From contig DAIEQH010000001.1 in NCBI GenBank assembly GCA_027347985.1, positions 1 through 56,176 on the forward strand: a DNA stretch of 56,176 bases, written 5' to 3'. This DNA is from Candidatus Nomurabacteria bacterium (GTDB lineage: Bacteria; Patescibacteriota; Minisyncoccia; Phycocordibacterales; UBA9973). A program made the translations under genes and the position numbers. Below the pieces are notes generated by a model that saw nothing but the letters and a program-made list of their open reading frames with translations, had not been told where the DNA came from and made no database searches. Position 1 is the first letter of the stretch; each line of letters begins with the position of its first letter. Positions 1,190 to 44,592 of this stretch are shown in pieces.

Positions 1190-3352
1190 ATGGAATTAAG
1201 TGATAGATTGGAAACAAAATTCCGCTTGGATGAAAGTCAAAAAAGGGCTTTGCGTAAACTCAATCTTTTTTCTGTTCATGATTTACTTTTTCACTTCCCT
1301 GTCAGATACAGCGATATGAGCGAAATAAAAAAAATATCTGAATTAGTTGCTGGCGAGACAGCGACAGTTTGTGGAAAAATTTCAAACCTAAAAACAAAAA
1401 AAGGGTTTAAATCAAAAATTCCGATGGGCGAAGCCCAAATAGAAGACTTGTCTGGAAAAATAAAAATCACATGGTTTCACCAAGCCTATCTAGCAAAGAT
1501 GATTCACGAAGGAGACAATGTGAAATTGACTGGGAAAGTGACAGCAAGTAAATACGGCACATATTTAGCCAACCCAGAATTCGAAAAGACACCTAATATG
1601 CCAATAGATTCGCATGACACTTTATTTACAAAAGAAGGTGCGGATAATGCTGGATATTCCTTCCCTATTTATCACGAAACAAAAGGCATTACTTCCAAGT
1701 GGTTTTATCATGCAATAGAGAAAATATTAAGAGATAAAACTTTAGATAAAGTGGAAGATTATATTCCAGAAGATATTCTAAAAAAATATAGCTTGCCGAC
1801 ATTGAAAACATCTTTAGTCTGGATTCACAAACCAAAAAATGCACGAGATGCAGAGTCAGCCAGAAAAAGATTCGCTTTCGAAGAAGTTTTTTGTATTCAA
1901 CTTGAGCGTCAGCATGACAAATTAGAATACAGAAAAAATAAATCATTTCAAATAAAAGTAAATGAAAAAGAAAAAGAAGAATTTATAAAACGCTTCCCTT
2001 TCACCCCAACTAATTCACAAAAAAAATCCATCCAAACTATTTTGGATGATATGGGCAGAACTTTCCCAATGTCTCGACTTTTAGAAGGAGATGTCGGCAG
2101 TGGCAAGACAGCTGTCGCCGCCACAGCCGCACACACGACAGTCAAACAAATTCCCAAAGGCCAAGGTTTTGGTAATTTGCAGGTCGCCTATATGGCACCA
2201 ACTGAGATATTGGCGGCTCAGCATTTCGAGTCTTTTATACAGTATTTTAAGCACCTACCAATCAACATAGGCCTTATTACAGGCTCTGGTTGTCGCAAAT
2301 TCCCCTCTAAGGTCAATCCAAGTGGATGGACGGACATTTCTCGCACTCAGCTTTTAAAATGGACAGCAGAAGGAATTATACCGATTCTGATAGGCACACA
2401 TGCCCTCATTCAAAAAACTGTTAAATTTAAAAATCTGGCACTAGTGGTGATAGACGAACAACATCGCTTCGGTACAGCTCAAAGAAGAAAACTCGTTCGC
2501 AAAGACAATATCGCTCCTCATTTACTTTCCATGACAGCGACACCTATTCCCCGCACTTTGGCTCTGACAATTTATGGAGACTTAGATTTATCTTTACTTG
2601 ATGAGATGCCAGCGGGCAGAAAACAAATAATCACAGAAATTATCACACCTCTAAAACGTGATGAAACTTATGAAAAAGTGAGAGTGGAATTAAAAAATGG
2701 TAGACAACTCTATGTCATCTGTCCTCGAATAGATGAACCCGATCCCGCTAAAGAAATGGCCGTACAAGCGAAGTCTGCGGTAGCGGAAGCGAAACGTTTA
2801 AAGAAAGAAGTATTTCCTGAATATGAAATAGGAGTGCTTCATTCAAAAATGAGTAAAGAGAAAAAAGAAAATGTGATGAAAGATTTTACCGATGGAAAAA
2901 TAAATATTTTATGTGCGACATCTGTGGTGGAGGTCGGAGTGAATGTTCCTAATGCTACAATCATAATCATTGAAGGAGCAGAAAGATTCGGCCTAGCGCA
3001 ACTTCATCAGCTTCGTGGACGCGTCATCAGAAGTAATTATCAAGCATATTGTTATGTTTTTGCTGATGCGAAAAGCGACAAAACTATTCAAAGGTTGAAG
3101 GCTTTAAAAACTGCCAAAAATGGTTTTGAATTGGCAGAATTGGATTTAACTTTAAGAGGTGCTGGAGAATTAGGAGGCACAAAACAATGGGGCATCTCAG
3201 ATTTAGGAATGGAAGCAATAAAAAATTTAAAAATGGTAGAAGCCGCCCGCACCGAAGCCATTCGCCTCATCGGAGAAGATTCTGAACTCTCAAAATATCC
3301 CCTCCTTAAACAAAAGGTTCACGAAAAAGCTGGAGAATTCCATTTTGAGTAA
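1190..3352 (+). CDS. recG: ATP-dependent DNA helicase RecG
   Basis: Motifs DVGSGKT, DEQHRFG and QLHQLRGRVIRS, plus an N-terminal wedge-like region. The start was moved to the ATG at 1190 (MELSDRLE) because the track start at 1130 lies inside the tRNA-Ser. Confidence 0.9.
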   Translation: MELSDRLETKFRLDESQKRALRKLNLFSVHDLLFHFPVRYSDMSEIKKISELVAGETATVCGKISNLKTKKGFKSKIPMGEAQIEDLSGKIKITWFHQAYLAKMIHEGDNVKLTGKVTASKYGTYLANPEFEKTPNMPIDSHDTLFTKEGADNAGYSFPIYHETKGITSKWFYHAIEKILRDKTLDKVEDYIPEDILKKYSLPTLKTSLVWIHKPKNARDAESARKRFAFEEVFCIQLERQHDKLEYRKNKSFQIKVNEKEKEEFIKRFPFTPTNSQKKSIQTILDDMGRTFPMSRLLEGDVGSGKTAVAATAAHTTVKQIPKGQGFGNLQVAYMAPTEILAAQHFESFIQYFKHLPINIGLITGSGCRKFPSKVNPSGWTDISRTQLLKWTAEGIIPILIGTHALIQKTVKFKNLALVVIDEQHRFGTAQRRKLVRKDNIAPHLLSMTATPIPRTLALTIYGDLDLSLLDEMPAGRKQIITEIITPLKRDETYEKVRVELKNGRQLYVICPRIDEPDPAKEMAVQAKSAVAEAKRLKKEVFPEYEIGVLHSKMSKEKKENVMKDFTDGKINILCATSVVEVGVNVPNATIIIIEGAERFGLAQLHQLRGRVIRSNYQAYCYVFADAKSDKTIQRLKALKTAKNGFELAELDLTLRGAGELGGTKQWGISDLGMEAIKNLKMVEAARTEAIRLIGEDSELSKYPLLKQKVHEKAGEFHFE

Positions 3353-3366
3353 GATTTATATTTTAC

Positions 3367-3714
3367 TTATAAATGCAAAATTACATTTTCAAAAAAATTT
3401 TCAATTTTACCAGGTGCGGTCATTTCTCCTGGAGAAAGAACATTACCGCTTGCTTCATCAAAAAATATTCTCCTAACTTCATCTAGAATAGATTTTTTAT
3501 CTTTTGACATTTTTAAAGCCTGTACAGCTAAAGTAACCATTTTGTCCATAGATTGGTCAACTTGAGTTTGAAGATGTTCAAGTTCGTCATCGTTTTTATT
3601 GTCGTGTCTTGTATATTTGGTGAATTCCCAACAAATGTTTTTGTATGCAGAAAATAATGTTTTAAATTCATTTTTGAAAGCTTCTTGATTAAATTGTGCT
3701 GGCAACTGCTCCAT
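3367..3714 (-). CDS. Hypothetical protein (115 aa)
   Basis: ORF only. No recognisable motif. Confidence 0.4.
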   Translation of the reverse strand: MEQLPAQFNQEAFKNEFKTLFSAYKNICWEFTKYTRHDNKNDDELEHLQTQVDQSMDKMVTLAVQALKMSKDKKSILDEVRRIFFDEASGNVLSPGEMTAPGKIENFFENVILHL

Positions 3715-3745
3715 ATTTAATATAGTAACATTTATTTATAATTTG

Positions 3746-3818
3746 TCCGCCCTCTAGGACTCGAACCTAGGACACGACGAGTATAAGTCGTCTGCTCTAC
3801 CAACTGAGCTAAGGGCGG
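3746..3818 (-). tRNA. tRNA-Ile with anticodon UAU (AUA decoder)
   Basis: CCGCCCT-TA-GCTC-AGTTGGTA-GAGC-A-GACGA-CTTATAC-TCGTC-GTGTC-CTAGG-TTCGAGT-CCTAG-AGGGCGG-A. The body resembles minor tRNA-Ile2, but position 34 is T rather than C. Confidence 0.85.
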
Positions 3819-3866
3819 ATATTAACAAATACACAATATCCTATTTCCCCATTAAAAACAACACCT

Positions 3867-4597
3867 TACGGAGGTTTACGGAGGTTAAACCTCCGTATCT
3901 TCTGCAAATTCAATACTATCTAGCCAACTATGTACAAATTCTCTAAAAGAAACTTCATTCTGAAAATAATCTGGGAAAACTGACTTATTTAAGATACTTC
4001 CTTCTACTCTATCAATGCCAGTAAAATCTAGATAACTAGAATAGGTATAAGTTGATAAAAATTCTTTCGCCTTTTCATTATTCTTAACTATTTTTTCTTT
4101 CCATTTTGTTTCAATAAGTTTTATTGGATTTAAGTGAATATAAGCATAGAGATATTTTAAATATTTATCTTCATCAACATGTCTAGCTTTAAAACTTCCC
4201 TGGAACAGAACACCCGATCTTTTATAGACCTTATTAAAATACATAGTATAAGCTGTCATTAGTTTTTGCATAAACAAACTTATACCTCCTTCAACTTTTT
4301 CCTTAAGTAGTAGATGAAAATGATTAGGCATTAAACAGTATGCACCAATATCTACTAAAGTATTTTCCCTCTTCAAATTAAACTTTTCTACGGAGGTTAA
4401 ACCTCCGTAATTTCTAATTTCTATGGAAGAAGAATTATTACAGATAAAAAGAAGGAAAAGAAAACGCTCGTAATCTCTTTTGTTTAAAAAGATTTTTCTT
4501 TTTTCTACTCCCCTATTATAAATATGATAATACTCCTCTGGGGCAAAAACATAATCTCGTGCCATACAAGTATTATACACGGAGGTTTAACCTCCGT
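3867..4597 (-). mobile_element. IS200/RAYT-like single-gene element bracketed by tacggaggt..acctccgta hairpins
   Basis: Hairpins at 3877-3897 (preceded by a half-repeat tacggaggtt at 3867-3876) and at 4579-4597 flank the Y1-transposase-like gene. The overall size of about 730 bp is IS200-like. Confidence 0.6.
3885..4565 (-). CDS. IS200-like / REP-associated tyrosine (Y1, HUH) transposase family protein
   Basis: Motifs YHIYNRGVEKRKIF, CLMPNHFHLLL (HUH) and YAYIHLNPIK. The likely start is MARDYVF at 4565. The stop codon lies inside the 3877-3897 hairpin. Confidence 0.75.
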   Translation of the reverse strand: MARDYVFAPEEYYHIYNRGVEKRKIFLNKRDYERFLFLLFICNNSSSIEIRNYGGLTSVEKFNLKRENTLVDIGAYCLMPNHFHLLLKEKVEGGISLFMQKLMTAYTMYFNKVYKRSGVLFQGSFKARHVDEDKYLKYLYAYIHLNPIKLIETKWKEKIVKNNEKAKEFLSTYTYSSYLDFTGIDRVEGSILNKSVFPDYFQNEVSFREFVHSWLDSIEFAEDTEV

Positions 4598-4603
4598 AAA
4601 GAC

Positions 4604-6547: not shown

Positions 6548-6597
6548 TCATAGCATAGAAAACTAAAAAATTAAAATTCTAGAAATATATTTCGTTG

Positions 6598-6997
6598 TGG
6601 AGATGCGGGGAATCGAACCCCGGTGCAGAAGATTTTTGCAAAGAAATCTACATGTGTGTTTCACTTTTTGTTTTAGATTAAAAAATTCTTAAGCGAACGA
6701 AATATTTTTTAATCGATTCCCTTTTAATTTTTTAGGAAAGTCAGGACCCACTTTCCCCTATCCCGATAATATTATGCCTTGCTCTTATATATCGGAAGTC
6801 TATAAGAGAGACACGAGCTTACGCGGTTGCGGAAACTCGAGCAAAAGCAAAATCCTTCACACCGAAGTATGGAGAAATTTTTGCAAATGCCTTAGAAGTC
6901 AATTTTGCAATTAACATTTGAACGAATTTTTACGAGATTACGTCCGTTCTCGACATGCATCTTTACAATAGATCTACTGTCTATGCCTTGCATCCCC
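6598..6997 (-). ncRNA. ssrA: tmRNA (SsrA)
   Basis: The 5' GGGGATG pairs with the 3' CATCTCC-A, including a G3:U pair (Ala identity). The 3' T arm is CGGGG-TTCGATT-CCCCG. It sits 13 nt downstream of smpB. A candidate tag frame is at 6819-6908. Confidence 0.85.
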
Positions 6998-35001: not shown

Positions 35002-36780
35002 TTATATAAATTCTGCTTGATAACATTTCTCACAATATACTATCTCTTTTCTTTCAGGACTTATGGCTGTTTCAAATTCATTTTGACAAGGACTATTTCC
35101 GTGTATATGTTTTATGGTATTTTTATATACACCATCTTTTGATTCTACACCACTACACATACATTTTCTATGCCAAAGTTTTGGTGGATTTTTCTTTTTA
35201 ATTCGTTCACCATAACGACAATTTGGACATAAGTGAGGTAAAGCTATATTCGCCGAACGAAGAAACTGTAATTCATCAGGTAAAATGCGAAACACTTCAG
35301 TACATTCTTGTTTGCAATCTTCGTCTTTATGTTCACAAGAAATAACTTCATTTAATATAGAATCGTCTACTTCTTTTATATGATTTGGTAAATTTTCTGC
35401 TTTTATTGTTATTTGATAATTTTTTTCTTTCTTATCATACCATTTAAATCCTTTTTCCAATGCTTCCTCTTTACTTAATGGAAAATATTTATGTGCCCAA
35501 GTTTCATTATAGGCCCATAGAGAAAATTCACTTGGAAAATATTCACCATATTTGTATATTCTTCCTTTACTATCTATATAGGGCATTTCATTCATATGTT
35601 TAATAATTTTTGGTATTAGTTCTTCGTATTCAACTTTCCCGTATTGTTTATTTAAAATACAATATTTTTTATTTTTTAACTTTGTACAACCAAAACAATA
35701 AGAACAATTGTACATTTTTTCTGTATATGTTAAATCTCTAGAATCATAAGGAGCTCTACCAAAAAAACATCTTTGAGAGTGGAGGCCTCCAGAATTCTCA
35801 TAATAGAGTTCGGAACTACCGCCACCCAAAATAACATCATAACTATCTTTCAACAAAAGGCCACTAAGAAAAACATATTTACAATTTTCTATACCAAGAA
35901 GCGTAGAAAAACAAGTCTGACAATTTTTCGTTTGTTTTATATCATCCCCAGTAACATTTTTAGAGTTTATAATAATGGCAAAGCGTCTTGGAGTTTTGTC
36001 ATAGAGTTCTAAGAATTTTTTTTGTGCCTCCTGAATAGTCTTATAACTTCCTAAATCCCATTTCATCATTTCTTTCTCATACTCTTCTTTTGTGTATTGT
36101 TTATTAAAAATACAATATTTTTGATTTCTCAAATTAACACAACCAAAACAATTTGTGCATCCTATACAATTAAAAAGGAAAGAAGAATCGAGACATTCAT
36201 TTGAAAAATAGGTAAATTTCGTATTAAAAACTCCATTTGAATATATAGTTTCGTAAGTATGATCAGCATTTACAATTACATCGGAATCTAATAAATCTCT
36301 AGAAAATATTGGATTACCACAATAATAACAATTTATGCTTTGAAAAGATCCGAAAGTAAGCCTACAATTTTTACTACGTATAGTGGTATCACAATAATCG
36401 CAATCAGTACAATTTCTATTATCCGTAGCTTGGTAAGGTACTTCGTTTTGTAAATTCAAAAATTGTTCAAAAAATGGTTTTGAAAAATCATAGTCTCGTC
36501 CATAATCCAATTGATTCCAACTGTCTCCCCACCAGCAACTGTTACAATAGACAATATAAGAAGTATCAGGACGATATAAACTTACAATTTCTTTACCACA
36601 CTTATCACAACTATCTTTATATAAAAATCTATCTCCAATAAAAGTAAGTCGACGAATAAGTCTGCATTCCGGACACCAGGTCGGCGGAGGAACCTTAATT
36701 TTCTCATAGAAATTAAAGTCTTCGGGCTCAATCGTGAAGTCTTGTTTACAGTTTTGGCATTGTCGTGTTTCGTTTTTCAT
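35002..36780 (-). CDS. Cys-rich zinc-ribbon-capped protein, paralog 5
   Basis: 592 aa. CQNCKQDFTIE..PPPTWCPECR, CDKC-x17-CNSC, two YCI(F/L)NKQY units, and C-terminal C-x17-CEKC. Confidence 0.7.
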   Translation of the reverse strand: MKNETRQCQNCKQDFTIEPEDFNFYEKIKVPPPTWCPECRLIRRLTFIGDRFLYKDSCDKCGKEIVSLYRPDTSYIVYCNSCWWGDSWNQLDYGRDYDFSKPFFEQFLNLQNEVPYQATDNRNCTDCDYCDTTIRSKNCRLTFGSFQSINCYYCGNPIFSRDLLDSDVIVNADHTYETIYSNGVFNTKFTYFSNECLDSSFLFNCIGCTNCFGCVNLRNQKYCIFNKQYTKEEYEKEMMKWDLGSYKTIQEAQKKFLELYDKTPRRFAIIINSKNVTGDDIKQTKNCQTCFSTLLGIENCKYVFLSGLLLKDSYDVILGGGSSELYYENSGGLHSQRCFFGRAPYDSRDLTYTEKMYNCSYCFGCTKLKNKKYCILNKQYGKVEYEELIPKIIKHMNEMPYIDSKGRIYKYGEYFPSEFSLWAYNETWAHKYFPLSKEEALEKGFKWYDKKEKNYQITIKAENLPNHIKEVDDSILNEVISCEHKDEDCKQECTEVFRILPDELQFLRSANIALPHLCPNCRYGERIKKKNPPKLWHRKCMCSGVESKDGVYKNTIKHIHGNSPCQNEFETAISPERKEIVYCEKCYQAEFI

Positions 36781-36821
36781 GTTCTAATGCTTATTTTTGT
36801 CAAAGCCGAGCTTTGACATTT

Positions 36822-38492
36822 TTAGTTGATATTTTGCTTATAACACTCTTCACAAGCTATTTTTTGATATCCCCACTCTGGTAAATAATACGCTTCTATC
36901 TCCTTTTTACAATAAATACATTTATATGCATATGCTTGCAATACTGTTAAATCTTTCAAACTATTTTTTATTCTGACATCAAAATGCAACCTTGGGAGTG
37001 GAATATTATTTTCTTTATAAAAAATAAGTTCATTTTTTGCAATGTTAAAACGCCAGCCAGTTTCTGGGCAAATAAGCGCTTGAGTGATTATTGTATCCGA
37101 TACGTCTTTGATATCATCTGGCAATTCACTCGTTTGCATACCTTCTAAATTTTCTTCAACAATATCTTCCCAATAACCACCGAGTTTTAAGATATCTTCT
37201 TTTCTTGTCCTTGGGAAATAAGTAAAGCTGGTAGAAAAATTAAAAGGCCCAGCACTCATAGAATAAGGCAAAAACTTACCATATTCTCCTCTTTTTCTCA
37301 TGTCTTCAATAATCTTTGTCTTGAGCTTGTCGAAAGATTCTTTGGTGTATTGCTTATTTAAAATACAATATTTTTTCTTTTTTAAACCAACACAACCGAA
37401 ACAATATTCACACTCAATACATAAATCTATATATTCAGAATATCTTGAAGAAGACCAAACCGAATACTTAAGAGAAAAAGCATTTACACAGGCAGCACAA
37501 TTGCCAGATAATTCCATATACCAACAACCATTCGTATCAATGTTAGATTTTTCTTTTATTCCTCTAATACAATTAAAACAATCCTCACTTTCATTTATAG
37601 TATAACAACTATGACAATTCTTACAGTCTAACAAATAATCTCCAGTCGAATCATATATTCTAAAATTAAAGTTTGGTCTATGTATTACTTCTTTTTTTAC
37701 AATCTCTTCAAAGTGCTTCTTGTGATTTTGTATAGATTCATAAGAACCAAGCTTAAACGATTTTAATTTTTCTAAATACTCTTCCCTTTCATACTGAACA
37801 TTCTCTATACAATAGGATTTACCCCTTAAATTCCAACACATAAAACAATTCTGGCAGTTACGACAATCATAAAGAAAATATGAATCTACGCAATCTCGAG
37901 AGTGTTTGGAGTAAAATAGTTTGTAAGAATGATGACAGTCGCCAATTTCATAACATTTTTCTGAAGTAAAGCTGATAACTGCTTCGATAGAATTTTTAAC
38001 TTTCAAATCTCTATAACAATAATATAGGTCTTCACATTCTTCCATTGAGCGTGCTAAATAACAATTTTTAGAATTCCAGACATCATCACACCATTCGCAA
38101 TTTGTATTCTTTATACCATTCTGGTGCGGATGGGGGACTTTTTCTTGAAGCTCTTGAAGTTGTTCAAAAAACGACTTATTTTCATCATAATCTTGACCAT
38201 AATCCATCGCATCCCATTTATCGCTATACCATTCCGTGGAAGTATAAATCGGATAGCGATTTTTCTCTGGCAAAACTGTGATTAAACTTTCTCCCGAAAG
38301 GTCTGATTTACCTTTTCGAAATTTTCCAAACATCCAGAAAGATAAATGTATTTTTACACGACAAAAGAAACATATTACAGGTAATTCTATACCGACTTTT
38401 TCATACAAAGAAAGTTCCCCCTCTGTTATTTCAAAGGAATTATTACAGTGCTCACAAGTTTTACTTTGCTGTTTCATTGTACTCAAAAACAT
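36822..38492 (-). CDS. Cys-rich zinc-ribbon-capped protein, paralog 6 (most divergent)
   Basis: 556 aa. CEHCNNSFEITEGELSLYEK..CFFCR, two YCI(E/L)N.QY units, and C-terminal CIYC-x18-CEEC. An alternative start is M6 at 38477. With either start, the 5' end overlaps the grpE 3' end. Confidence 0.65.
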   Translation of the reverse strand: MFLSTMKQQSKTCEHCNNSFEITEGELSLYEKVGIELPVICFFCRVKIHLSFWMFGKFRKGKSDLSGESLITVLPEKNRYPIYTSTEWYSDKWDAMDYGQDYDENKSFFEQLQELQEKVPHPHQNGIKNTNCEWCDDVWNSKNCYLARSMEECEDLYYCYRDLKVKNSIEAVISFTSEKCYEIGDCHHSYKLFYSKHSRDCVDSYFLYDCRNCQNCFMCWNLRGKSYCIENVQYEREEYLEKLKSFKLGSYESIQNHKKHFEEIVKKEVIHRPNFNFRIYDSTGDYLLDCKNCHSCYTINESEDCFNCIRGIKEKSNIDTNGCWYMELSGNCAACVNAFSLKYSVWSSSRYSEYIDLCIECEYCFGCVGLKKKKYCILNKQYTKESFDKLKTKIIEDMRKRGEYGKFLPYSMSAGPFNFSTSFTYFPRTRKEDILKLGGYWEDIVEENLEGMQTSELPDDIKDVSDTIITQALICPETGWRFNIAKNELIFYKENNIPLPRLHFDVRIKNSLKDLTVLQAYAYKCIYCKKEIEAYYLPEWGYQKIACEECYKQNIN

Positions 38493-43883: not shown

Positions 43884-44592
43884 ACACAAATACATAGGAA
43901 TTTCCTATGTATTTGTGTTATACTAAAGTATATGGCTCTAAGAAAACAAGATTTTGAAATAGATGAGTATTATCATTTATACAATCGTGGCACAGAAAAA
44001 AGAATAATTTTTTTAGATGAACAAGATTATAAACATTTTCTGTTTTTAATGTATATTTGTAATACACAAAAAAGTATTGTTTTAAGAGAAATTGATGAAC
44101 TTTTTGATCGAGGAGAAGCTATCATTGAAATAGGAGCATACTGTTTAATGCCAAATCACTTTCATATTCTCGTGCGTGAAAAAATAGAAAATGGTATTTC
44201 AACATATATGCGTAAATTATTAACTGCTTATTCAATGTACTTCAATAAAAAATACAAGAGATCTGGTAAATTATATGAGGGTGTATTCAAGTCAATTCAC
44301 ATAGATAAAGATAATTACTTAAAATATATTTACTCATATATACATTTAAATCCTGCAAAACTAATAGATAAAAATTGGAAAGAAAAGAAGAAAAAAAATG
44401 TTAATAAACTGTTTAATTATGTTTTTTCTTATCTGTATTCTAGTTTAAGAGAGTATAAAGATAAAAAATATAAAATTATAAATCCATCAAAATTCCCTAA
44501 TTATTTTGAGAACCCCAGTGATCATAAAAATAAATTATTAGAATGGCTTAGTTTTAACAACTTAGAGAATACATAGGAAACTCCTGTGTATT
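43884..44592 (+). mobile_element. IS200/RAYT-like single-gene element bracketed by aatacatagga..tcctatgtatt hairpins
   Basis: A perfect 17+1+17 palindrome is at 43884-43918, upstream of the gene. A related hairpin at 44568-44592 overlaps the stop codon. The 709-bp span is IS200-sized. Confidence 0.6.
43932..44576 (+). CDS. IS200-like / REP-associated tyrosine (Y1, HUH) transposase family protein
   Basis: YHLYNRGTEKRIIF, CLMPNHFHILV and YSYIHLNPAK. It is a paralog of 3885-4565. The start was set at MALRKQ (43932) rather than the track start at 43824. Confidence 0.75.
   Translation: MALRKQDFEIDEYYHLYNRGTEKRIIFLDEQDYKHFLFLMYICNTQKSIVLREIDELFDRGEAIIEIGAYCLMPNHFHILVREKIENGISTYMRKLLTAYSMYFNKKYKRSGKLYEGVFKSIHIDKDNYLKYIYSYIHLNPAKLIDKNWKEKKKKNVNKLFNYVFSYLYSSLREYKDKKYKIINPSKFPNYFENPSDHKNKLLEWLSFNNLENT

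Follow-up and report, generated by a model that had tools for sequence, protein, structure and literature searches.

A REPtron-like unit from a Candidatus Nomurabacteria genome carries its flanking hairpin in frame within its own Y1/HUH transposase-like gene

Introduction

Genes for REP-associated tyrosine transposases (RAYTs) that are flanked by their repetitive extragenic palindromes (REPs) are established as units termed REPtrons (PMC2817692, PMC3333891, PMC8266576). According to Table 1 of PMC6006769, the class 2 enzymes (RAYT/TnpA-REP) carry the tyrosine motif Y---NP, as compared to Y---Q in IS200. REPs that lie in frame within genes are known as well (PMC3733652), and for subclass 2.4 TnpA-REP of Cyanobacteria and Bacteroidetes they have been described in frame within the tnpA-REP gene itself (Quentin 2018, PMC6006769). 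In the collection of literature that was searched, no paper linking the candidate phyla radiation (CPR)/Patescibacteria with REP/RAYT was found. Here, we analyze a Y1/HUH tyrosine transposase-like gene and the hairpins in and around it, located in a stretch of 56,176 nucleotides from a Candidatus Nomurabacteria bacterium (contig DAIEQH010000001.1), which is referred to as the window in the following. The assembly from which it stems comprises 646 kb in 133 contigs, has a G+C content of 34.7% and is 87% complete. The gene is bracketed by a cognate hairpin, an identical copy of which is translated as part of the encoded protein. A first-pass annotation made from the sequence alone had called this internal copy unusual, a view that is tempered by the in-frame REPs described in the account of subclass 2.4 (PMC6006769), and had proposed that it might mark a past self-targeted insertion or a regulatory structure.

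Results

Three copies of one hairpin in and around the Y1/HUH gene

The window contains three copies of a TACGGAGGT-N3-ACCTCCGTA hairpin and no further ones. Their arrangement, together with the gene and its promoter-like site, is as follows.

3862..4603, minus strand: complete unit of hairpin, gene and hairpin, about 740 bp long and inserted between tRNA-Ile(TAT) and the ftsH stop codon; each end is uncertain by about 5 nt
3885..4565, minus strand: Y1/HUH tyrosine transposase-like gene of 226 aa plus stop, with H82-F-H84 as the HUH motif and Y142 in YIHLNP
4578..4598, minus strand: upstream hairpin with 8 perfect pairs and the sense-strand loop TAA, occupying the promoter spacer
4389..4409, minus strand: internal in-frame hairpin in codons 53-59 (YGGLTSV), the loop TTA being one whole codon
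3877..3897, minus strand: downstream hairpin that holds the stop codon; joined with the extra arm, it makes a 12-bp stem that resembles a terminator and precedes a T-rich tail
3866..3875, minus strand (letters given on the plus strand): duplicated hairpin arm TTACGGAGGT, in tandem with 3876-3885
4572..4600, minus strand: promoter-like site with -35 TTTACG (4600-4595), a 17-nt spacer, -10 TATAAT (4577-4572) and 6 nt to the ATG

The hairpin at 3877-3897 reads TACGGAGGT-TAA-ACCTCCGTA and is a perfect 9-3-9 palindrome, within which the stop codon (3885-3887) is located. The copy at 4389-4409, likewise a perfect 9-3-9 hairpin, is letter for letter the same. Both had been recognized in the first-pass annotation, as had the bracketing of the gene on both flanks and the translation of the internal copy within NYGGLTSVEKF; all of this was confirmed. 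The codons of the internal copy are TAC GGA GGT TTA ACC TCC GTA, which encode residues 53-59. The third copy is CACGGAGGT-TTA-ACCTCCGTA, and its loop is complementary to that of the other two. Its 8 perfect pairs span 4579-4597, the extent given before; the stem and its inverted loop are real, and a ninth, mismatched C/A pair extends the hairpin to 4578-4598. This copy lies 5 nt past the ftsH stop codon and is separated from the ATG at 4565 by 12-13 nt instead of the 14 nt assumed earlier. The extra half-site next to the downstream hairpin exists too, with its coordinates shifted by one base from the earlier 3867-3876. It is a 10-nt tandem repeat of 3876-3885 and permits the alternative 12-bp stem listed above. 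When folded as single-stranded DNA (ssDNA), each of the three hairpins has a free energy of -8.2 to -11.4 kcal/mol (z-scores of -4.0 to -5.2). The number of hairpin copies expected by chance is zero, as no match was obtained in 100 dinucleotide-preserving shuffles.

The layout recurs in related loci and the internal copy follows the flanking ones

Perfect and near-perfect hairpins were scored in a family set of 73 homologous loci from species-representative genomes; the related loci all stem from metagenome-assembled genomes of Patescibacteria. An upstream hairpin ending within about 90 nt of the start codon is present in 56 of the 73 loci. Among these 56, the same stem is found at or past the stop codon in 40, and 26 have their own locus-specific hairpin inside the open reading frame (ORF) at nt 156-206. 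Three loci contain a second internal copy at about nt 460-510, and a copy anywhere within about 3 kb of the outer flanks was found for only 7 loci. Of the 26 internal copies whose loop is 3 nt long, 22 have a loop that corresponds to exactly one codon. Among 70 loop regions, 24 show the 9-3-9 register with 8 or more pairs, as compared to one of 70 equal-sized control regions after the HUH motif.

The stems vary from locus to locus and agree within a locus, the consensus of the family being ttSCAAGGT-N3-ACCTTGSaa. In 19 of 24 loci the internal copy is closest to the upstream copy of its own locus; the other five form one clade with a common hairpin. The mean identity of internal and upstream copies amounts to 20 of 24 nt within the same locus versus 10.3 of 24 nt across loci. 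When synonymous sites in the 'GTGCAAAGT' clade were checked for constraint at the nucleotide level, 3 of 6 third positions were invariant as compared to 37 of 119 overall, the six sequences of this clade being too small a number to establish such constraint. A fixed relative orientation of the copies, as in REPINs or IS200, was looked for and not found; the orientations are mixed.

Duplicated hairpin arms like that of the window were also found beside the hairpins at the loci L049, L052, L020 and L061, in the genome G007 and in the rsmH gene of the window genome, and they may be the footprint of a copying mechanism. In L049, the internal hairpin (ORF nt 174-206) has its 3' arm duplicated in frame (ACTTTGCAC ACTTTACAC), which adds three codons, and the upstream hairpin of this locus has a duplicated arm as well, resembling the half-site at 3866-3875 of the window.

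The internal hairpin occupies an old site

The length of the segment that contains the internal hairpin was expressed as d, the number of residues between the YHxYNRG and NHxH motifs, which takes values of 59 to 82 in full-length members. Its mean is 73.8 with and 64.1 without an internal hairpin, and a clade with d=60, whose members are largely labelled as Saccharibacteria, never has one. Within the subgroup of the window gene (d=68), the loci L009, L011 and L013 and the paralog on contig C100 keep a segment of the same length without a palindrome, and L007 (TATCAAGGC...) and L018 (CCGAGGT...) each carry a different hairpin of their own at the codons where the window gene has its copy. Thus, the site predates the hairpin that is present there now. 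The hairpin-encoded peptide shows no conservation among the members of the d=68 group.

In a phylogenetic tree calculated with the loop columns left out, the internal hairpin appears in three major clades, and the well-supported branches force at least 7 changes. The clade in which the segment is 7 residues shorter (paralogs C46b and C122a and locus L026) is placed beside the long-form C100. The difference of 21 nt therefore reads better as a precise loss. As judged from these comparisons, the internal hairpin is an old inherited trait of the family and no one-off scar. The single past self-targeted insertion suggested in the first-pass annotation is thus not supported, as the alignment shows the segment to be ancestral, the outcome that the annotation itself had set against its suggestion. 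The recurrence of the hairpin at one position and in one codon phase in the three major clades weakens this suggestion further.

The whole unit is an insertion in a genome with several diverged paralogs

In the close relative G006, in which the C-terminal 200 aa of FtsH are 97% identical to those of the window genome, tRNA-Ile and the ftsH stop codon are only about 47 nt apart and there is no Y1 gene at this site. This spacer is also shorter than 100 nt in most other members of the genus. The extra DNA of the window (about 3862 to 4603) takes in both outer hairpins and the extra arm. A comparison with relatives for a unit of about 730 bp had been recommended at the outset; on this comparison, the unit of about 740 bp, absent from the G006 site, is an insertion at tRNA-Ile/ftsH. 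ARAGORN locates the tRNA-Ile(TAT) gene at 3745-3818 and, elsewhere in the window, a tmRNA at 6597-6997 and two tRNA-Ser genes within 943-1187.

The genome contains eight diverged paralogs, which share 34-53% identity with the window gene and each of which is flanked by a hairpin of its own. The closest one within the genome is about 51-53% identical, and near-identical copies are absent. No gene with more than 57% identity to the window gene was found in 40 genomes, 24 of which belong to the same genus and 16 to the same order. The number of family members per genome varies between 0 and 12 across these 40 genomes, with 8 in the genome studied here and up to 12 in the genus. One paralogous unit is located in the window itself.

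43884..44592, plus strand: paralogous unit, 51% identical, with a palindrome with a 16-bp stem upstream and an imperfect hairpin over the stop codon

This unit lacks the internal hairpin. The first-pass annotation had already noticed that its gene (43932-44576) has a shorter segment at the corresponding position, and the difference is exactly 7 residues. The paralog C79:31367-32068, in turn, repeats the full pattern with another hairpin, ACTTGGGAGC-CGA-GCTCCCAAGT, which is found ahead of the gene, in frame within it (nt 171-193, QLGSRAPKS) and immediately past the stop codon.

The window also holds a hairpin that belongs to another paralog. It is located at 36797-36819 (tGTCAAAGC-CGA-GCTTTGACa) between two minus-strand genes (35002-36780 and 36822-38492) and belongs with the hairpins of the Y1 paralog located at 19038-19652 of contig C122; half-sites of this hairpin family occur on at least 7 contigs.

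In the genome G007, two copies of a family member were found at 1005-1917 and 3267-4177 of the locus L120 (G007:C3:95800-100800), which are 100% identical across the gene. The pair sits amid other local repeats, among them one of 312 nt at 100% identity. Repeated hairpin arms (gctagtct, four times) are located downstream of each copy. The identity between the two copies begins at the upstream hairpin and extends beyond the downstream one, and the pair does not fix the transposon ends. It may represent a unit that was recently active or duplicated.

A hairpin replaces native codons in folD, and hairpins occur in other housekeeping genes

As the first-pass annotation had suggested, the genome was searched for further copies of the window 21-mer. 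Four full copies and one half-site were found in total, and the fourth full copy (G000:C52:2184-2204) lies in frame as YGGLTSV within folD (ORF at about C52:1809-2633). The length of the folD segment is unchanged in comparison to about 20 orthologs of the genus, the FYNGDMSLGFPAAL of a relative corresponding to FYGGLTSVCPPAAL here. The 21-mer thus replaces native codons and adds none. In the same codons, another perfect hairpin (TATCAAGGA-GAG-TCCTTGATA) is found in folD of G042, and a G-T-containing version of it in folD of G003. G008 folD, again in the same codons, contains CGGAGG-CAATT-CCTCCG, which is identical to the hairpin downstream of the G008 Y1 gene at locus L174. These folD comparisons appear to be the strongest evidence for copying in trans and for the in-place overwriting of older hairpins.

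The hairpin of the C79 paralog is also found in frame in other genes of the window genome, namely in rsmH (C41:8515-8555, 1.5 copies), where it occupies a length-variable linker, and in an ftsQ-like gene (C59:749-769). At locus L157 of G042 (G042:C23:2805-2825), the hairpin TATCAAGGA-TAC-TCCTTGATA lies in frame (LSRILLDT) in an ORF of 1006 aa that resembles leucyl-tRNA synthetases.

The encoded protein appears to be an intact Y1/HUH enzyme

The ORF of the window gene runs uninterrupted from the ATG to the stop codon. The protein matches the Pfam model Y1_Tnp (PF01797) with an E-value of 1.8e-9 and 38.2 bits, the cut-off being 23 bits. It scores 42.4 bits with the NCBIfam RAYT equivalog model NF047646, which is below the cut-off of 80. 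The residues H14, G19, H82, H84, N111, G118, Y142, N146 and S177 are invariant across an alignment of 70 family members, and the window protein has all of them. Its further motifs are NHFH, LFQG, YIHLNP (residues 142-147) and YSS. In an AlphaFold model calculated from the 70-member alignment (predicted local distance difference test score of 94), Y142 is located on the helix 133-150, and the hairpin-encoded residues 53-59 lie between the first helix (29-41) and the strand pair that bears the HUH motif (71-89). The best Foldseek match of this model is the REP hairpin-bound TnpA-REP of E. coli (4ER8_A, E 3.8e-6), followed by the TnpA proteins of ISDra2 and IS608. A search of solved structures with the single protein sequence gave no match, and one with the family profile only a weak match to 4ER8 (E 0.069). 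With the HUH motif, the catalytic tyrosine and the family-invariant residues retained and 4ER8 as the best structural match, the earlier assignment of the protein to the Y1/HUH enzymes of the RAYT/IS200 superfamily holds, and the gene looks intact and catalytically competent in sequence and predicted structure.

The upstream hairpin is part of a promoter-like site that probably gives leaderless mRNAs

The promoter-like site of the window agrees with the consensus at 10 of 12 positions and is the best site of the region. In 23 of 38 loci of the family, the end of a hexamer resembling the -10 element lies 6-8 nt from the ATG, and no more than 6 of 73 loci contain Shine-Dalgarno-like 4-mers. Since the -10 element is this close to the ATG and Shine-Dalgarno sequences are scarce, the mRNAs of the family are probably leaderless, with transcription predicted to begin at the ATG. 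The 3' arm of the upstream hairpin (TTGACA, TTGCAA or TTGGAA) can be read as a -35 element at a distance of 16-18 nt from a good -10 element in 39% of the cases, the background being 2%. Internal and downstream hairpins have no comparable -10 element at that spacing. Thus, the promoter copy is linked to expression, and the internal copy is no promoter. An internal or antisense promoter at the internal hairpin was considered separately and rejected, as good -10 elements at 16-18 nt are found in 5% of the cases in sense and 0% in antisense direction at the same background of 2%. On the sense strand, the internal hairpin is not followed by a T-run.

Discussion

The explanation that we favor, with somewhat more confidence than doubt, is that the window locus is a REPtron-like unit whose internal hairpin is inherited and has been matched to the flanking ones by copy-paste over older hairpins, with the encoded enzyme as the likeliest agent. 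Such a unit consists of a class-2 (RAYT-like) Y1/HUH ssDNA transposase gene and its cognate 21-nt palindrome. In the family, the palindrome regularly takes three places: in or next to the -35 element and spacer of the gene's own, probably leaderless promoter, in frame in the segment of variable length that separates the first helix from the HUH strands, and on or just past the stop codon, where it could serve as a terminator. New hairpins would be pasted over older ones at the same site, keeping the internal copy identical to the flanking ones, and the reading frame would survive, the length of the unit being divisible by three. The encoded enzyme, as the most likely agent, would cut the feet of the hairpins on ssDNA and exchange 21-nt cassettes; its binding to the promoter copy, and perhaps to the internal copy as well, may feed back on its own expression. 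The comparisons show the layout and its conservation, the joint variation of internal and flanking copies, the insertion of the entire unit and the replacement at constant length in folD; overwriting in place by the enzyme, the best-supported mechanism, is inferred from them. As a more far-reaching and only tentative proposal, which we regard as possible though doubtful, cassette exchange on ssDNA by these Y1 enzymes might repeatedly rewrite fixed sites in essential genes (folD, rsmH, leuS in relatives) and in the enzyme's own gene to whichever hairpin is current, seven codons each and with the length kept, and the promoter and internal copies might sense the enzyme level and throttle expression.

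Several observations weigh against this explanation. A conserved guide tetranucleotide or cleavage motif was not found beside the hairpins of the family, where only A/T extensions of the stems are seen. Relative to the downstream copy, the loop of the upstream copy is inverted in 20 loci and has an unchanged orientation in 16, with other arrangements in 6. Many lineages have a decayed internal copy or none at all without any apparent effect, which argues against an essential role. Hairpin copies are also very few (4 in the 87% complete genome), and the activity may therefore be rare. Finally, a Y1 gene with the hairpin of G042 folD was not found in the assembled G042 contigs.

Other explanations have to be weighed against the same data. 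The hairpin could have landed in frame in this lineage by a single recent self-insertion and persist as a neutral scar. Such an event would fit the perfect hairpin, as expected of a young copy, and the paralogs C46b and C122a and the locus L026, which are shorter at this position by exactly the 7 residues (21 nt) of the hairpin. Yet internal hairpins with locus-specific stems sit at the same position and in the same codon phase in 26 of 56 related loci, relatives without a hairpin have segments of the same length, and the nesting of the short clade beside the long-form C100 makes a loss likelier, so that the family comparison largely refutes an insertion and we consider it very unlikely. Alternatively, the internal hairpin could be part of a selected autoregulatory operator. 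By analogy with IS608 TnpA, a dimeric enzyme with two hairpin sites might bind the promoter hairpin and the internal one about 190 bp downstream and repress transcription by looping or as a roadblock. Operators within coding sequences are familiar from lac O2 and gal OI. In the window, the promoter encloses the upstream hairpin, which in many relatives is the source of the -35 element, the position of the internal copy is conserved, and the lack of conservation of the peptide in the d=68 group would place a constraint, if there is any, on the DNA rather than on the protein. However, the internal copy disappeared or decayed on many occasions (at least 7 forced changes in the tree) and is absent from the entire d=60 clade, the orientation of the hairpins varies, the same hairpins occur in folD and rsmH without such a role, and HUH enzymes bind folded single strands and not duplex operators. 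We therefore regard a role as operator as rather unlikely.

The internal hairpin might instead act at the level of RNA, as an mRNA stability element, a translational pause or a nuclease site, its likeness to the flanking copies being incidental. It is indeed transcribed, REPs are known as mRNA stabilizers and terminators (PMC3733652), and the hairpin version in G003 folD contains G-T wobble pairs. Since the predicted transcript begins at the ATG, however, the upstream copy would be outside the mRNA; loops in both orientations give different RNAs, the exact identity over 21 nt with copies in other genes points to copying of DNA, and the T-run is missing on the sense strand. Such a role is highly improbable in our view. 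A site of recombination by which the N- and C-terminal modules of paralogous Y1 genes are shuffled at the hairpin is hardly credible. The many diverged paralogs per genome and the position of the hairpin at a domain boundary would suit such shuffling, but N- and C-terminal identities are correlated (r 0.76), no convincing chimeras were found in 2415 pairs, and the sole outlier (L024) is located at a contig end.

How REP hairpins spread and how they are matched to their RAYT enzymes is a long-standing open question. The family described here supplies dozens of natural pairs of enzyme and hairpin, with at least three copies each at defined places, one of them translated. The folD site, with its species-specific hairpins in the same seven codons, makes copy-and-replace directly testable. 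It also illustrates how stretches of essential proteins can be determined by a mobile repeat in genomes with almost no intergenic space. For annotators, the perfect palindromes inside such ORFs should be taken as real.

Comparison with described systems

When compared to REPtrons (PDB 4ER8; PMC2817692, PMC3333891, PMC8266576), the window locus shares a Y1/HUH enzyme with the Y---NP tyrosine motif, which reads YIHLNP at residues 142-147 and places the protein with the RAYT/TnpA-REP enzymes of class 2 as tabulated in PMC6006769. It also shares the bracketing of the gene by a gene-specific family of hairpins with more copies elsewhere in the genome, and the presence of several diverged genes per genome with a hairpin of their own. 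It differs in that its hairpins are short, perfect palindromes of 21 nt without a 5' GT[AG]G foot, in their number (4 as compared to tens to hundreds of copies), in the unit itself being inserted relative to sister genomes, and in a protein of 226 aa with a C-terminal tail that remains below the NCBIfam RAYT cut-off. Classical RAYTs are single-copy and vertically inherited, unlike the window family with its 0-12 members per genome and its insertion next to ftsH.

The compact size of about 0.7 kb, with only a Y1 gene between hairpins, a hairpin near the gene start and the presence or absence between genomes (the site at tRNA-Ile/ftsH is empty in G006 and most of the genus) are reminiscent of IS200 (IS200/IS605 family, subclass 1.1). 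IS200, however, has the Y---Q motif in the published table, a protein of about 150 aa and near-identical copies within a genome, in contrast to Y---NP, 226 aa and a closest paralog with about 51-53% identity in the window genome. Furthermore, the hairpins at the ends of the window unit are perfect palindromes whose relative orientation is variable.

With respect to its motifs, the window protein fits subclass 2.1 (TnpA-Y1/TIRYT; PMC6006769 Table 1; PMC3733652), which is listed with NH[YF]H, FQ, Y[IV]HLNP, an SS tail and about 238 aa; this fit was judged by comparing motifs with the published table, not by a profile search. In the descriptions given there, subclass 2.1/TIRYT either comes without REP-like hairpins or has GGGGWSAS terminal inverted repeats (PMC6006769, PMC3733652), whereas the window gene has flanking hairpins and an internal one, and no GGGGWSAS motif is present.

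The translated palindromes in housekeeping genes (here folD, rsmH and the ftsQ-like gene) resemble the Rickettsia palindromic elements (RPEs) and intragenic REPs (PMC3733652). In contrast to these, the units are only 21 nt long, native codons of folD are replaced with the length kept, and one folD site contains different hairpins in different species.

The internal copy finds its nearest counterpart in subclass 2.4, where, in the account given in PMC6006769, a cognate REP likewise lies inside its own gene in a peripheral variable region with the frame kept. According to the same account, the REPs of subclass 2.4 are long, canonical or of the 'double foot' type with GT[AG]G, a foot that the window hairpins do not have, and the protein motifs are NH[IFV]H, WQ and YIxNNP as compared to NHFH, FQ and YIHLNP in the window protein. 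The insert of subclass 2.4 is located between the HuH motif and the tyrosine, and that of the window protein (residues 53-59) ahead of the HuH motif (82-84). In the family described here, position, codon phase and the tracking of the flanking hairpins are broadly conserved, features on which the passages of PMC6006769 concerned with subclass 2.4 are silent. Overall, on the basis of these published descriptions, the window element is a Patescibacterial variant of the REPtron, for whose in-frame internal REP a precedent has been published (PMC6006769).

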